From a virus (taxonomy: Duplodnaviria > Heunggongvirae > Uroviricota > Caudoviricetes), in the IMG/VR virus record IMGVR_UViG_2734482545_000002: 25,502 nucleotides of DNA; one strand, given 5' to 3'. The notes under the pieces were generated by a model. That model was given only the letters and a program-made list of their open reading frames with translations, was not told where the DNA came from and did not search any database. Shown here piece by piece: positions 833-8,921 of this stretch. The first letter of the stretch is position 1. Each line of letters begins with the position of its first letter. A program made the position numbers and the translations under genes.

Positions 833-1414
833 TTACCCTATAGGTGCTACTGGCCATTCAATATCCGGTGCAGTTGATGTATCAACACGGTTCAGCAACA
901 CCCGATACTTTTTCCAAGCTTCCAGCAACAAGGTTTCTTTCTCCGTTGCGATCTCCAGATCCACAGCATCCTGAAGCGGCGCTATATGCTCACTGGCTAC
1001 CTGCATCAGGCTGTTTTTTGTTTCTTCCGCCTCCCGGATCCGGAACAGTTTTTCTGCTTCCGTATCCTTCACCCAGGCTGTGCCGTTCCACTTCTGAAAC
1101 TCCCCTTCCGGGGATAACCAGGTGACATTTTCCGGTAATGAGCCGAGTTCAGAAATAAATAACGCGTCGCCGGAAGCCACGTCATAAACCGTTTTACCCC
1201 GATGATCTTCAACGAGATGCCACGATGACTCATCACTGTTGAAAACAGCCACGAAACCAGCCGGAATATCTGGCGGTGCAATATCGGTACTGTTTGCAGG
1301 CAGACCTGTATGAGGCGGAATATATGCGTCACCTTCACCAATAAATTCATTAGTTCCGGCCAGCAGGTTATAAATTTTTATGGTCCGTGCTTGTTCACTC
1401 ATTCTGAATGCCAT
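833..1414 (-). CDS. tfa: Tail fiber assembly protein (lambda Tfa homologue), 193 aa
   Basis: [27 protein letters not shown]... is near-identical to lambda Tfa as I recall it, except the last few C-terminal residues. ATG at 1414..1412 overlaps the stf stop (ATAATG arrangement as in lambda). Confidence 0.93.
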
Positions 1415-4400
1415 TATGCGAGCCTCACAATATAGTTAAATGCGATGTTTTTGACGGTGTTTTCCGCGTTACCAGCAGCGTTAACGGTGATGGTGTGTCC
1501 ATGTGAACCAATCGCAACAGAGTGCGTATGAGCACCAATACCGACAGTATGCGCGTGTGCACCCGCAGATGCTGCTGTGCCGGACAGTGAGTGTGTATGG
1601 TTTCCTTCTGAAGATGATTTACCTACCCATTGGGAGGTGCCACTGGTTAATGAGCCACTGATACCAACCTGATTAGTCCCGCTAACTTGAGTACTCCCTG
1701 CCGGAAACATTCCAGTAGGTTGACTCCCGCTATTCGTTCTGGGCCCAGTCTGACTATGTTGGTGGGCCCCAGCTGAACTTGTAGAGCCGCTCAGACTGTG
1801 CGTATGCGCCCCGGTGTTATTCGTGGATTTAGTGCCGTAATCAAACGACGATGTGGTTTTCGTCCCCAAATCCGTACTGGATGCGCTGGCGCTGTGGGTG
1901 TGCGATTTAATGCCATCCTGTTCCTGAGACAATACGGCACGACCACTGGCGGGCTTGCCCTTAATCGTCCAGCCACGCATATCAGGGATCACGCCTGACG
2001 GATAAGCGGCTGCAAGTTTCGGGTAAGCAGATTTGTCAAAAGTCTGCCCCTGCATCAGGGCATAACCAGACGGAACGGTATCTGATGGCCACGGGATTGG
2101 TGCACCGACTGGATAAAACTCTGCAGGAGGATGAGCCGAGGTGTAAAGCTGCGCCCACGGCGACCAGTTTGCGTCGGTCGTATCCCGTCGTGAACGAATA
2201 AATGCCGGAGCATGAGCACCGCTTGTACCACTCCAGCCGATGAGTAACTCACCTTCGCCAACGGCTGTCATCCCTTTCAGGTGAATGATATTTCCATACG
2301 CTGTTGGATATCCGTTGTTATACACCTCGTATAACTCAAGACCTGCTGCCCCCTGCGTATTGTCTGTCAGCGCGGCTACCCGACCTTTTGAAGCCAGATT
2401 AACTGATGATACTGCTGTTCCACCTGACGGTAGCGCCCCGATCTCTGATGCCGTTGGCTTATTTCTGGAGTTATAGTCCCTTCGCCAGCCAGGTGAATAA
2501 TCTGTTCCGTGATTAATATAGGTAAACTGGGCGTTGGTTGTTCCGCCACCGCTGGATGTGGTCGGAGTGGTAATGCGGATCGTCATCGCTGACTTTATCC
2601 CCATTACTTCAATGACAGCTCCGGCGAGATGAATATTACCGCAGCCAGTATCAGTAATGATTTTATTATTGCCATAAGACCAGGAACCCTTGCACATCCA
2701 GTATGGATGGTTAAATGCTCCCTGAGAATCCAGCCACTCGATAAACTGTGCAGTCGTCCAGTTTCCTGTTGTTGTGCTTACTGACCCACCGAAGGCACGG
2801 CAGGCACCAATATTTTTCGTAAAGGTGTCTTTGCCAGGGATATCCGCACCGTTCTGATCTTTCTGCAGACGTTTCTCAGCATTGTCATTGGCTGCTTTTA
2901 CTGCCTTTGGCGTTGCCGCCAGCGTTTCAGACGTGCTGTTGGTCGCGCTGCTTAGCTGGATTATCCCTTTCTGTGCTGTCGTTGCATCCTGTGCGGTGTA
3001 TTTCCCGTTAGCCAGGTCATACGCGGCCTTAACGGCTTTTGGTGTTGCCGCCAGTGACTCGGAAGTGCTGTTAGTCGCACTACTGAGCTGTACTATCCCC
3101 TTTTTCGTCGTGCTCGCATCCTCAAGCGCCACGGCGGATGCAATATCCTCTGCCCGTTTTGCCGCTGTCTCAGCGCGCGTTGCTGCAGATTCCGCCGTAC
3201 TTTTGCTCTGAGCTGCTGCCGTCGCACTACCAGCAGCCTCTGTCGCCTTCGTGGATGCCGTCGTGGCGCTGCCCTTCGCTGCTGACGCCTGTCTGGTCGC
3301 CTCATCTTTTGAAGCAGACGCCGATGATGCCGATGACGCCNNNNNNNNNNNNNNNNNNNNNNNNNNNNNNNNNNNNNNNNNNNNNNNNNNNNNNNNNNNN
3401 NNNNNNNNNNNNNNNNNNNNNNNNNNNNNNNNNNNNNNNNNNNNNNNNNNNNNNNNNNNNNNNNNNNNNNNNNNNNNNNNNNNNNNNNNNNNNNNNNNNN
3501 NNNNNNNNNNNNNNNNNNNNNNNNNNNNNNNNNNNNNNNNNNNNNNNNNNNNNNNNNNNNNNNNNNNNNNNNNNNNNNNNNNNNNNNNNNCTGTTTTTGA
3601 GCCTGCCGCAGCTGAGGCACTCTGTCCCGCTGCCGTTTCAGAAGACCTGGCGTTCGTCTCGGACGTTTTGGCCGCCTTCGCAGAATTTGCAGCCGCCGTC
3701 GCCGAGGAAGCTGCGCTACTGGCGCTTGATGATGCGTTCGTTTCTGATGATTTTGCCGCCTCTTTTGAAGCCGACGCATCCCGGGCTGAGGTGGCAGCTT
3801 CTGACGCTTTCGTGGTCGCGGTGGATGCAGAAGTGGCTGCTGATTGTTGTGACGCTGCCGCATTCGTTTCTAACGTTTTCGCCGCACCGGCACTGGTAGC
3901 CGCCGCGCTTTTTGAGGACTCTGCAGCGGCAGCACTTTTTGAGGCTTCAGTGGCCTTTGTTGATGCCGTTCCTGCGCTGGAAGACGCTGACTGAGCCGAC
4001 GAAGCGGCCTGTCCGGCTGACGTGCTGGCTGCACGTGCTGAATCTGCAGCATCAGTCGCATGGGTTGCCGCCTCACGGGCTGATGTGCTGGCATCGCTGG
4101 CTGATTTCTTCGCGGCTGCCGTGTTCTGTGCCACCGCGGACGCGTTACGCGCCACCTCTTCCACCATCAGCTCAAAACGGCGCAGTGCCTCCGGACGGGC
4201 ATCATCCTCCGTCATGGCACCGAGAAAATCATTCAGCGTACCGGGTCGGGAATCTTCATACACGGTGATGGTCCCGGCATGTGACGGCGGGAATCCTTCC
4301 ACCAACAGAATAACGCTGTACTGACCGTACTCAACGTCCATGCTGTAACGCCCGGCTTCATCCGGATTTTCTGAGGCCAGCGTGTTCACCACCACCGTGG

Positions 4401-4491
4401 TGCTGTTACGTTTTGCTTTCAGCTGGATTGTGCAGTTCTGTACCGGTTTTCCTGTGCCGTCTTTCAGTACACCTGAAATCTTTACTGCCAT
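1414..4491 (-). CDS. stf: Side tail fiber protein (lambda Stf family), about 1025 aa including a 250-nt N run; enlarged relative to lambda Stf
   Basis: N-terminus [26 protein letters not shown] and C-terminus ...[29 protein letters not shown] match lambda Stf. Ala/Ser/Thr-rich low-complexity stalk and His-box motifs ([21 protein letters not shown]) are present. Start taken at ATG 4491..4489 (MAVK) rather than the upstream GTG at 4497 used by the track. Confidence 0.9.
2885..3115 (-). repeat. Imperfect direct repeat of ~75 bp inside stf, encoding two copies of the ~25-aa motif GI(V/I)[11 protein letters not shown](S/T)[11 protein letters not shown]
   Basis: Two similar nucleotide blocks (around 2893-2970 and 3040-3110) are visible; the protein shows the motif twice about 45 residues apart. 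Consistent with the known phage tail-fibre repeat motif. Confidence 0.7.
3341..3590. other. Run of 250 N inside stf (assembly gap or masked sequence)
   Basis: Literal n characters. The stf reading frame is maintained across the run as given. Confidence 0.99.
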
Positions 4492-4500
4492 ATTCACCCC

Positions 4501-4529
4501 ACAAAAAAGCCCGCCTGAACCGGCGGGCT
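4501..4529 (-). terminator. Rho-independent terminator downstream of lom (minus strand)
   Basis: Minus-strand read: agcccgccg gttca ggcgggct hairpin followed by tttttt (complement of the A-run at 4503-4508). Same position as the terminator-like hairpin in lambda between lom and stf. Confidence 0.7.
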
Positions 4530-4556
4530 GTCATAACACTGTGTTACCTGGCTAAT

Positions 4557-5364
4557 CAGAATTTATAACCGACACCCACGATGAAACCGTCAGTGCGCCA
4601 GAGACGTGTTGCTGTGGCGACCGTCATCACTTCNNNNNNNNNNNNNNNNNNNNNNNNNNNNNNNNNNNNNNNNNNNNNNNNNNNNNNNNNNNNNNNNNNN
4701 NNNNNNNNNNNNNNNNNNNNNNNNNNNNNNNNNNNNNNNNNNNNNNNNNNNNNNNNNNNNNNNNNNNNNNNNNNNNNNNNNNNNNNNNNNNNNNNNNNNN
4801 NNNNNNNNNNNNNNNNNNNNNNGAGCCTTCATAAGCAATATCAATGGCCACGGATTCGGTCGGGTTAAACTGCACGCCAGCTCCCCACGCCAGAGACGTG
4901 TTGCTGTGGCGACCGTCATCACTTCCGGTCAGCACGTCGTGCGTTTTCCCCTTGTTGTCAGTTACGCGGAGATAATCCCCGGAGAAAGTCGACACACGGC
5001 TGTAAGCCACACCCGCCATCGCATACGCGCTGAACCATTCATTCACGCGCACAGACGGCCCCGCCATCACGCTGAACCAGCGGTTACGCACGGAATCTTC
5101 ATGCCAGCGGGTATCGCTGTAACGGGTCAGCTGGCGATTCTTGTCTCCTGCATAGCTGAATGACGTCACCAGCCCCAGCGTATCCGTAAACTCATAACGG
5201 TATTTCACGTTAATCCCGTTCAGATCATCACTGCCGGGAACGTTGGTCCGGGCATGAAGATACCCCGCGCTCAGCGTGGACTGATGTTCAGACGCCCATG
5301 CAGGCGCACCGGATACGGCCAGGCAAATGGCTGCGGACAAAATGGCTGCACAAACTTTACGCAT
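4557..5364 (-). CDS. lom: Outer-membrane protein Lom (Ail/Lom family beta-barrel), interrupted by a 189-nt N run
   Basis: N-terminus MRKVCAAILSAAICLAVSGAPAWASEHQSTLSAGYLHARTN... and C-terminal TDGFIVGVGYKF-stop (4592..4557) match lambda Lom. The span is ~187 nt longer than lambda lom, about the size of the N run. Confidence 0.9.
4634..4822. other. Run of 189 N inside lom, flanked by a duplicated ~38-bp block
   Basis: cgccagagacgtgttgctgtggcgaccgtcatcacttc occurs at 4596-4633 (immediately left of the N run) and again at 4887-4924. Confidence 0.95.
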
Positions 5365-5434: not shown

Positions 5435-8400
5435 TCAACGAATACTGATGCCGGAAGCCGCTTTTTTGGTCACAATCACCGTACAGTCGGTGATATTGCC
5501 TGCCCCCTGATTGCCTTTCTGGAAAATCTTAAACTCCAGAGTGACGCTACCACCACCACTAGGCATATCAATAACTGCACTGTAACTACCGGGAATGGCC
5601 CCTTTAGTTTCTCTGGATGCGATTAATACGCCGTTTTTGCGAACTTCAAAACCATAACCCGTGTATCGCGTGCCTCCTGGGTTATTTCCGCTCCCCGGAT
5701 CGTCATACGCTATACCGTTAAAAATAATGGGCGGAATAATAATCTGGCGGTCAAAGTTATGATCATCGCTTATGGTGACTGTAACCGTCCCGTTTGGTGT
5801 TTCCGTGTTACCCCACGTACCAGCCTGTTTCGGAAATGATTTGGATACAGCTTTAACGAAGTCACCTCTGACCTGAGTCGCCTCCAGCATGCCCTTAATC
5901 GTACAGTTTTCATTTACCGTGACATTGTTGAGCGTCCCGGCGTTCGCATTCACACTGCCACTGATATCCGCATTTTTAGCGGTCAGCTTTCCGTCCGGAG
6001 TCAGGGAAAATGCCGATGGATTTCCACCGCTGGTAATGGTGGGGGCCGTCAGGCGTTTCAGGAACACGTCGTTCATGAATATCTGATCGCCCTGACCAAC
6101 AAACATCGGTTTTGTGTTGCCATTCGCAGGATTAACCATCGCAATCCTGTCCGCCGCCAGCAGCACCTGACTCTGCATGCCGTCAGGGGTGTTCTCAATA
6201 CCGGCACCAATACCCGCGATATAAAGGCGTCCGTCCTGCATCTGCTGCAGCTTCACAGCCCACATGCTGTTCAGGTTATTATTTGTATCAACCTGAACCT
6301 TCTGTATCTGCTGAATTGCCGCACTCTGGTCTTCCAGTTTCTTATTGACGGTCTGCGTGATTTCATTGCTGACATCCGTAATGGACGTCCTGATTTCAGC
6401 CAGGTCAGGCGCAAGCTGACCGTTATCAATCTGCGTCCACAGCTCCTGAGCCAGATGGGTTTTCCCTATCTCGCCTTTGAAAAAATCCAGATAACCGGAT
6501 GCATCATCACTCGGCTGACCAACAGCCTCCACGAATGCCGATTTGCCAACGGTGTTCACACTGCGGATATAAAAGTAATAATCATGGCCCGGTTTGATAT
6601 TGATACTGGCGGCTATCCAGTACAGCGCCGTGCCAAGATAGCGTGCTGTGGTTTCAACCTGCCTGATATCCGCAATCCGCTTTTCCGAGAACCAGAACTC
6701 AAACTGTACCGTCGGATCATAAACCGCAAGATGCGGCGTGGCGGTTATCTGAAAATAGCCCGGCGTCAGCTCAATCCGCGACAGCGCTGCCGGTGCGGCA
6801 ATCCGGAACGATACCGACGCCGGATCGCCCTGCTGCCCCCACGCATTTACTGCCCGGACTGTCAGCCTGTAGTTCCCCAGCGCCAGTTGTGTGAAGCGGT
6901 AAGTGGTTTCCGTCGTCCGGGCCGTGCTGACCAGNNNNNNNNNNNNNNNNNNNNNNNNNNNNNNNNNNNNNNNNNNNNNNNNNNNNNNNNNNNNNNNNNN
7001 NNNNNNNNNNNNNNNNNNNNNNNNNNNNNNNNNNNNNNNNNNNNNNNNNNNNNNNNNNNNNNNNNNNNNNNNNNNNNNNNNNNNNNNNNNNNNNNNNNNN
7101 NNNNNNNNNNNNNNNNNNNNNNNNNNNNNNNNNNNNNNNNNNNNNNNNNNNNNNNNNNNNNNNNNNNNNNNNNNNNNNNNNNNNNNNNNNNNNNNNNNNN
7201 NNNNNNNNNNNNNNNNNNNNNNNNNNNNNNNNNNNNNNNNNNNNNNNNNNNNNNNNNNNNNNNNNACCGTCAGGAACACGGCTCACTTTTACCTTCACGC
7301 CGTCGGTGACGGACTGGACCTCCACGCTGACCGGATTCCCCTGCCCGTCAACCAGGCTTATCAGCGTGGTGCCGGAGGATGGCAGCGTGATTTCACGGTC
7401 GAGCGTCAGCGTCCGGGTCTGGCTGTTCACCGCCAGCACGCGCCCGCCGGTGCGGATACCGGCATAGTCATCATCGCAGATTTCAATGACATCGCCCGGT
7501 ACATGACGAAGCCCTTCAGCACCCACGCTGAAATCCACGGTCTGCGTCTCCAGCAGTTCCGTTTTAATCAGCCACAGCCCGGCGCGGTGTGCCTGCCCCC
7601 GGCTGGTACAGCCAAAGGCATCCATCTTCGTGACGTTACGACCGTAACGGACAATGGCCTGCGTATCCTCCACAAGCTCTGTCGCCGTCTCCCAGCCGTT
7701 ATCCGGGTCAATCCAGTTCACCTCAACGGCATTATGGCGGTCTTTCAGGGCGCTGAAACTGTAGCGGAACGGCGCGCCATCATCCGGCATCACCACATTA
7801 CTGCGGTTATAGGCCCACACCTTATCCGACTGTCGGTCCTGCACGAACGTCAGCGTCTGCCCGTTCCATACCGGCATACAGCGCATCGCCGAGCAGAAAT
7901 CACTGAGCACATCCCACGCCTTGCGCTGTGTGGTCAGCCAGGCATTACAGGTGATGCGCGGCTCCGTGCTGCCAAAGCCGTCCGGCACCGACTGGTCACA
8001 GTACTGGCCGATGACATACAGCGCCCATTTATCCACATCTGCCGCACCAAGACGTTTCCCCATGCCATAGCGCGGATGGGTCAGCATATCCCACAGACAC
8101 CAGGCCATGTTGTTGCTGTATGCCGGTTTTAACGTTCCGTCCCAGATACCGCTGTATTGCCGCGTCTGCGGATTATAGTTCGACGGCACCTGCAGAATGC
8201 GCCCGCGAAGATGATAATTACGGCTCACCTGCTGGCTGCCGAACTGCTCCGAATCCACCTGTACGCCGACCAGTGCCGTGTTCGGGTAGCACTGTTTCAC
8301 ATCGATGATTTCGGTGTATGACGACCAGAGCGTTTTGTTCTGCAGCTGGTCTGTGGTGCTGTCCGGCGTCATTCTGCGCATCCGGATATTAAACGGGCGC

Positions 8401-8921
8401 GGCGGCAGGTTATCCACCACCACCGAGGCCAGATACTGCGAGGTGGTTTTGCCCTTAATGGTGATGTCTTTTTCCGTCACCCAGCCACCGTTACGCTGTA
8501 TCTGAACCAGCAGGCGGACTTCCGACGGATTCCTGTCTCCCTTTGAGGTGGTTTCCACCAGTGCCTGTACACCGAAGGTAAAGCGCAGACGGTCGATGTT
8601 TGCCGACGTGATGGTCCGGGTGATCGGCGTGTCATATTTCACTTCCGTACCCAGCACCGTCTCGGAGCCGGAGGATTCAAACCCCTCCGGCGGTGACTGC
8701 TCCTGCTCACCTGCCCGGAACACCACCGTGACGCCGGAGATGTTGGTATTCCCCTCATTGTCCAGCACCGGCGTACTGTTCAGCAGCACGCTTTTTAATC
8801 CATCCACCGGACCTTCAACCGGCCCTTCACTGATGGCATCGATCACACTCAGCAGCTGCGTGGACTTCAGGTTGTCCTTCGCTTCGCGCGGGGTATGCCC
8901 CTTACTGCTGCCTTTACCCAT
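5435..8921 (-). CDS. J: Tail tip / host specificity protein J (central tail fiber), about 1130-1160 aa; split into two track ORFs by a 331-nt N run
   Basis: N-terminus [45 protein letters not shown] matches lambda J. Track ORFs 6771..8921 and 5435..7279 are the N- and C-terminal parts in different frames across the N run. The C-terminal ~150 aa diverges from lambda J. Confidence 0.9.
6935..7265. other. Run of 331 N inside J
   Basis: Literal n characters. The J frame changes by +1 across the run, so the stated gap length cannot be exact. Confidence 0.99.

Follow-up and report, generated by a model that had tools for sequence, protein, structure and literature searches.

The 25,502-nucleotide viral sequence IMGVR_UViG_2734482545_000002 (hereafter the window, meaning the whole stretch of DNA that was analysed) carries on its minus strand an open reading frame (ORF), at 1414-4491, that is a genuine side tail fibre (stf) gene of a lambda-like E. 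coli prophage. The frame runs unbroken from an ATG at 4491 to a stop codon at 1414-1416 and comprises 1025 codons, as established from the ORF list and a check of start and stop; a GTG two codons upstream of the ATG offers an alternative start. The ORF is assigned to stf because Pfam finds in its product a phage_tail_N domain, two Phage_fiber_2 repeats and a Collar domain. We read the gene as encoding a modular, presumably homotrimeric fibre built from exchangeable parts, and as a member of a lambda-type late operon (Nu1/A ... J, lom, stf, tfa), a reading to which we assign a probability of roughly 90%. The architecture is of a known kind: it has already been deposited and annotated as a side tail fibre protein in isolated phages, and the allele is one that had been sequenced before. 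A preliminary description of the locus had called it an enlarged mosaic with an extra central domain. The mosaic is borne out, with lambda/Rac-type ends, a different middle and sharp boundaries, whereas the middle is better described as an exchange than as an addition. The coordinates of all features are collected in Table 1.

The two ends of the protein tie it to lambda. Residues 1-113 are 92-100% identical to the Stf proteins of lambda and mEp460 and to Rac StfR (lambda accounting for the 92%), and residues 1-300 are 87% identical to lambda Stf, in keeping with the lambda-like N-terminus given in the preliminary description. An attachment role for this N-terminal domain has been described in lambda (PMC12617516). 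The proximal shaft that follows matches that of lambda in both composition and homology, with 84 codons masked by a run of N. In a global alignment, lambda Stf shows a 103-aa gap opposite window residues 301-403, which represent extra shaft in the window; this segment is paralogous to the adjacent shaft (~50% identity at an offset of ~119 aa), a relationship that fits a diverged internal duplication. If helical, the proximal shaft may be longer than that of lambda by roughly 15 nm. Pfam places two stretches of PF03406 Phage_fiber_2 (E 6.2e-37) beyond the shaft, and these form a tandem of a 41-aa unit with a 44-aa (132-nt) period, the copies being identical at 30 of 41 residues and sharing 74% nucleotide identity over 107 nt. 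A duplicated motif had been noted previously at ~25 aa; the duplication exists, but at this larger size. In Ur-lambda Stf, a hinge at 394-422 separates a proximal coiled coil (residues 102-393) from a distal one (423-525) (PMC12617516), and it is from this map that the window allele is seen to have a longer proximal and a different distal shaft.

Lambda Stf has 774 aa, so that the window protein exceeds it by 251 aa. This excess is made up of ~103 aa of shaft, 44 aa of fibre repeat and ~115 aa from a larger cassette, less ~12 aa from a shorter tip. Residues 404-497 are similar to lambda, which has a single Phage_fiber_2 unit where the window has two, accounting for the 44 aa. Lambda residues ~394-529 are without similarity to window residues 498-792, and similarity returns at lambda 530 and window 793 and extends to the end of both proteins. 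A 250-aa cassette of two modules stands in place of lambda residues ~394-529; it is a replacement of the lambda hinge and distal coiled coil and no insertion. The part of the preliminary description that does not hold is therefore the extra domain: the remaining added length is shaft and the additional repeat, and ~40% of the excess (103 aa) is Ala/Ser-rich shaft, including the N run, that lies outside the central domain. That description had also considered that the protein might prove collinear with lambda, with an excess stemming only from the N run; ~148 of the 251 extra residues are in fact encoded by contiguous read sequence. The module breakpoints are sharp in comparisons with lambda, StfR, P1 Sv', D108 S' and Gifsy-1 Stf. 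Functional lambda Stf chimeras have been fused at R393 and S528 (PMC11338833), and the natural junctions between lambda and the window (lambda 394 and 530) coincide with these positions. The allele is a worked example in which natural junctions are the very fusion points used to retarget lambda-based delivery particles.

Within the cassette, module A contains the Cys/Trp/Tyr segment singled out in the preliminary description, which lies at aa 559-628 and to which neither lambda Stf nor Rac StfR offers a counterpart. Module A opens with a linker motif, QNGADIPxKxxFxxNIG, is 82% identical to P1 Sv' 215-358 and is ~80% identical to Mu S' in the aligned core. Against parts of the Mu S', P2-like H and Yersinia phage fibres its identity is ~72-87%, and it also matches KVP40-type gp37. 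The homology to the Sv' domain extends to both sequence and fold, the solved homologue being the Mu S' fibre of PDB 8JU3, which is named as Mu gp52 in a secondary mention. In an AlphaFold2 model of aa 541-800, built from a 36-sequence alignment, module A is a confidently predicted, compact globular domain (predicted local distance difference test score, pLDDT, ~75-93) with invariant Trp, Tyr and Cys residues. In the same model, pLDDT is below 50 for module B and the linkers, and we therefore make no claim about the fold of module B; the structure prediction that had been proposed for the segment succeeds for one module and not for the other. The C-terminal end of module B is a conserved F-x-RS-x-RD...W...YT motif. 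Gifsy-1 Stf 501-790 aligns with window residues 685-1025 at 57% identity over the whole high-scoring segment pair, beginning at module B. In P1 Sv' (P1 3862-5419), a B-like region (aa 47-153) precedes an A-like region (aa 215-358), the opposite of their order in the window (2122-2868), and modules A and B are therefore separate recombination units.

Homologues of the central segment comprise 919 protein clusters at E<=1e-5, and the clusters listed carry tail fibre or phage tail protein names and originate from E. coli, Shigella, Salmonella, Yersinia, Photorhabdus and other genera. With an 82% match to P1 Sv' and a solved homologue for module A, and with this number of homologous clusters, the central segment is not unusual. 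The sole Pfam match to the segment, Gp34_trimer, is sub-threshold (18.3 bits against a cut-off of 27) and was not used as evidence.

The C-terminal tip is of the T4 gp37 type. A phmmer search aligns aa 792-1025 with residues 28-242 of 2XGF chain A, the T4 gp37 tip (E 1.4e-82); seven HxH motifs at aa 864, 896, 910, 965, 979, 988 and 997 are all in register with 2XGF, and the C-terminal residues are likewise aligned. Residues 793-1025 are 70% identical to lambda 530-774, confirming the lambda-like C-terminal His-box region of the preliminary description. The domain-by-domain alignment to lambda Stf, Rac StfR and T4 gp37 that it had suggested accounts for the ends and for the tip, while the middle finds its matches elsewhere, in P1 Sv' and Mu S'. 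In T4, the HxH histidines are said by Bartual et al. (in 2010) to bind seven iron ions in a needle of six strands, whose chains reportedly turn in a head domain with the presumed receptor site; the window tip may bind iron in the same way. A hypervariable patch in the head sits between the third and fourth HxH motifs, at the hairpin turn, and variation is concentrated there. The exact head-patch allele occurs in 25 of 5426 complete E. coli genomes, and isolated phages offer nothing close to it, T-even gp37 at ~60% being the nearest in the phage collection. This patch is the sole uncommon part of the gene.

In the fibre that we envisage, the lambda/Rac-type N-terminal domain (StfN) would dock on the tail tip and be followed by a long Ala/Ser-rich coiled-coil shaft, extended ~100 residues beyond that of lambda by the diverged internal duplication, and then by the two Phage_fiber_2 repeats and the distal cassette. 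Module A (Mu S'/P1 Sv' type) and module B (P1 Sv'/Gifsy-1 type) would form in-line knobs on the distal shaft, ahead of the gp37-type collar, the iron-binding His-box needle and the hypervariable head that would contact the receptor, with Tfa folding the tip. Such a fibre might make a reversible first contact with an outer-membrane porin or with the lipopolysaccharide (LPS) core of some E. coli strains, which would speed adsorption before J binds its receptor, and the head patch would set the specificity. Ur-lambda provides a precedent for Stf, as its virion carries four trimeric fibres that speed adsorption: its Stf binds OmpC, adsorption is 10-30x faster and the fibre is non-essential (PMC12617516). 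The Stf of Gifsy-1, with module B and the tip type in common with the window protein, binds Gal II of the LPS core (PMC12312913). The gp37-type tip of T4, for its part, has OmpC as its target. No literature was found on the Stf or the receptor of mEp460 or of the PhiR phages.

Several points weigh against this picture. Expression of stf and the presence of its product in the virion are predictions from the sequence. The masking by N affects 84 stf codons, the N runs of the window are not of exact length, and the two stf halves could derive from different contigs or even from different prophages of a scaffolded draft. Module B is without a confident model. Finally, the receptor class is not readable from the sequence: among gp37-type tips, some bind OmpC and others LPS core.

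The N runs bear directly on whether a 1025-aa protein exists. Both flanks of the run in stf are collinear with PhiR68_2, mEp460 and one complete E. coli chromosome, all of which carry 256 nt of Ala/Ser-coding sequence between the same flanks. The run is in frame, masks ~84 codons and is 6 nt shorter than in these relatives, and the length of 1025 aa is therefore provisional by a few codons. In J (window 5435-8921), the run at 6935-7265 measures 332 nt against 343 nt in PhiR68_2 and, being 11 nt short, leaves the two halves of J out of frame across it. In lom, 189 N (4634-4822) stand where relatives carry 12 nt, and the 38 nt past this run (4633..4596, minus strand) duplicate the lom interior (4925..4888), the repeat joining the lom 3' end via CTGGCG microhomology. 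Given the mismatches in J and lom, the lengths of the N runs in the window are estimates, not exact masks, and the window looks like a scaffolded draft. Two stf fragments from different prophages might thus have been joined across the run, leaving no 1025-aa protein in the genome; the inexact run lengths in stf and J, the replaced and repeated sequence in lom, and a median of three stf-like places per E. coli genome, which invites mis-joins, all speak for such an artefact. We nevertheless consider it very unlikely, as the repeats, the central cassette and the tip all lie on contiguous sequence (1414-3340) and the N-terminal 300 aa are near-constant among alleles, as is the masked part within this gene family, so that a mis-join would leave the architecture unchanged.

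Two further alternatives concern what the variable part does. The origin of module A raises the possibility that this part is a remnant or an active form of an invertible host-range switch (Mu G / P1 C / e14 P type) served by a Pin-type invertase, since module A is homologous to Sv' parts that lie within the Gin and Cin invertible segments. The StfR/window breakpoint also falls within the linker motif, a paralogous copy of which precedes gix in D108 S: the constant part of D108/Mu S has the motif and then directly the Gin crossover site, encoding FIQNVGLQE, while the Sv' part of D108/Mu carries a second copy of the motif identical to the window sequence. The site itself is missing. The AAACCnnGGTTT crossover core occurs nowhere in the window, the best match to the D108 gix repeat within stf is 21/36 and lies at an unrelated place, and a search of the window for these two sequences revealed no inverted pair of crossover sites (gix/cix/pix) around the variable part. 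The idea that the mosaic junction holds a Gin/Cin-type site was accordingly rejected, the junction motif being merely paralogous to the gix-bearing Sc motif of Mu/D108. Positions 1-832, from tfa to the window end, hold no recombinase ORF and no ORF over 52 aa and end in an IS1 terminus; neither a serine invertase gene nor an alternative Sv/U set in inverse orientation is found among the ORFs there, and the inverted second Sv/U set is absent. An invertible switch is thus extremely improbable. It is somewhat easier to imagine, though still quite unlikely, that the central cassette, and module A especially, forms a second, lateral receptor-binding domain, which would make the fibre bivalent, with a mid-fibre glycan or LPS site in addition to the gp37-type tip. 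Module A has its source in those variable parts of the Mu S', P1 Sv' and P2-like H fibres that determine host range, and its compact, confidently modelled fold with invariant Trp, Tyr and Cys would suit such a role. However, it is never terminal in Mu S', P1 Sv' or the window, where other modules and a distinct tip come after it, and it is conserved at 82-99% among fibres with different tips, far more than the head, whereas the parts of a fibre that touch the receptor usually vary most. Were it true, such fibres would read two receptors, one at mid-fibre (e.g. LPS core or a surface glycan) and one through the rare gp37-type head. A joint version, in which the rare head allele targets a receptor other than OmpC alongside a second site at mid-fibre, is likewise doubtful. 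We retain the modular side fibre with in-line knobs and a receptor-binding tip as the favoured reading.

The setting of the gene is that of a lambda-type late operon. The stop codon of stf overlaps the start of tfa by 1 nt; lom lies upstream of stf and tfa downstream, and the ORF order places J and other lambda late genes further upstream, so that the position of stf is collinear with that in PhiR68_2, mEp460 and lambda. Tfa is 93% identical to lambda Tfa and 93-96% identical across lambda Tfa, TfaR and others. Taken as a whole, the window matches isolated lambdoid phages (PhiR42_1, PhiR68_2, mEp332, ev099 and others) at 96-97% identity over ~90% of its length, and the corresponding end of the homologous prophage in E. 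coli O78 strain 3 adjoins bioA-ybhB, the attλ side. The hairpin and T run between lom and stf look like a terminator inside the late operon, a putative terminator that is presumably passed by Q-modified polymerase. As for lom, the anomaly at window 4596-4925 may stem from a partial duplication of lom or from contig ends that overlap in the scaffold, and the listed lom ORF (4627..5364) is artificially lengthened by the N run and the repeat. Some alleles carry a macro-domain protein gene between stf and tfa (Gifsy-1 3870-4694 and three E. coli matches); the window is without one.

Table 1. Features of the stf region, in window coordinates.
Feature	Position	Strand	Basis or remark
stf, side tail fibre gene	1414..4491	-	ORF list; collinear with annotated Stf of mEp460, PhiR68_2
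N-terminal virion-attachment domain (StfN collar domain + linker), aa 1-134	4090..4491	-	Pfam PF08400 phage_tail_N, E 1.4e-71
Ala/Ser/Thr-rich proximal shaft, aa 135-456, includes N run	3124..4089	-	A 38%, S 23%, T 12%
Run of 250 N inside stf shaft, covers aa 301-384	3341..3590		Relatives have 256 nt between same flanks
Phage_fiber_2 repeat copy 1, aa 457-497	3001..3123	-	Pfam PF03406
Phage_fiber_2 repeat copy 2, aa 501-541	2869..2991	-	30 of 41 residues identical to copy 1
Module A, Cys/Trp/Tyr domain, aa 542-685	2437..2868	-	Shared with Mu/D108 S', P1 Sv', P2-like H fibres
Module B, second shuffled fibre module, aa 686-790	2122..2436	-	64% identity to P1 Sv' 47-153
Collar domain of gp37-type tip, aa 796-843	1963..2106	-	Pfam PF07484 Collar, E 7.2e-12; aligned to T4 gp37 in 2XGF
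Needle and head of receptor-binding tip, aa 844-1025	1417..1962	-	phmmer to 2XGF chain A
Hypervariable head patch, aa 905-964, presumed receptor-contact region	1600..1779	-	Sole part strongly differing from mEp460, PhiR68_2
tfa, tail fibre assembly chaperone, 193 aa	833..1414	-	Pfam PF02413 Caudo_TAP, E 4.6e-44
GC-rich hairpin and T run between lom and stf	4508..4529	-	Also in PhiR68_2

For this gene family in general it is established that fibre mosaicism of this kind changes host range, as the preliminary description had it. Lambda and Rac have exchanged stf, and horizontal transfer of stf has long been on record (PMC3945230). According to the works cited in PMC3945230 (its references 71-74), it has long been established that lambda, T4, P2, P1 and Mu exchange tail-fibre modules horizontally and that associated invertases have a role in this, and reports of fibre-module shuffling among lambda, Mu, P1, P2 and T-even phages go back to the early 1990s. 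Of 5426 complete E. coli genomes, 624 match at least 80% of the window gene, whose 1025 aa fall in the mid-range of the references used (774 to 1120 aa). As a discovery the gene carries little weight, being a real but ordinary mosaic allele. Its uncommon head allele might be of use as a ready-made specificity cassette if the receptor became known.

The closest known counterparts are the Stf proteins of mEp460 (LR597641, VUF53340.1, 1023 aa), PhiR68_2 (PV340576, XSB43513.1, 3078 nt) and PhiR42_1, which have the identical module order along their whole length, 96-100% identity per 100-aa block outside the head, the same gene neighbourhood and Tfa proteins at 94-95% identity. They differ in the head patch (aa ~905-964), which is only ~40-60% identical and 4 aa longer in the window, in a masked shaft that is 2 codons shorter in the window if the N count is exact, and in a pin-type recombinase gene after tfa that the window lacks. 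A further sequenced relative has the same central cassette and a tip that is 100% identical, head patch included, but it has a single Phage_fiber_2 repeat where the window has two (a difference of 44 aa), a frameshifted tfa and a Qin-like location. The stf of ON032529.1 (region 5698-7768) shares 97.8% DNA identity with the window over its 3' 1927 nt and 90.6% protein identity over aa 449-1025. ON032529.1 is named 'Salmonella phage SPF_0923' and carries the manganese transporter genes sitB/C/D directly after tfa; the record has the look of a stretch of lambdoid prophage joined to host DNA and not of the genome of a free phage. SPF_0923 had been entertained as a P2-like carrier of the same distal half and was rejected, its annotation being lambdoid J-lom-stf-tfa plus host sit genes.

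Among the classical fibres, Ur-lambda Stf has the same shaft type, one fibre repeat, the same type of collar and His-box tip and the same operon position, but is without the ~103 aa of shaft and the second repeat and has another head patch. Rac StfR (1120 aa) is 97.7% identical over aa 1-300, near-identical in the shaft and first repeat and 72-76% identical in the tip; it differs in its single repeat and in its centre, where ~350 unrelated residues (522-875) stand instead of modules A and B. The Mu gp52 (S'), D108 S' and P1 Sv' proteins share module A, and P1 Sv' module B as well; they belong to myovirus fibres with variable parts inside invertible segments and have another tip and U' chaperones. 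T4 gp37 aligns in the collar and the seven-HxH needle, while its head differs in sequence and length and the region upstream of the collar is unrelated. T4 relies on the chaperones gp38 and gp57, whereas the window gene uses a lambda-type Tfa.

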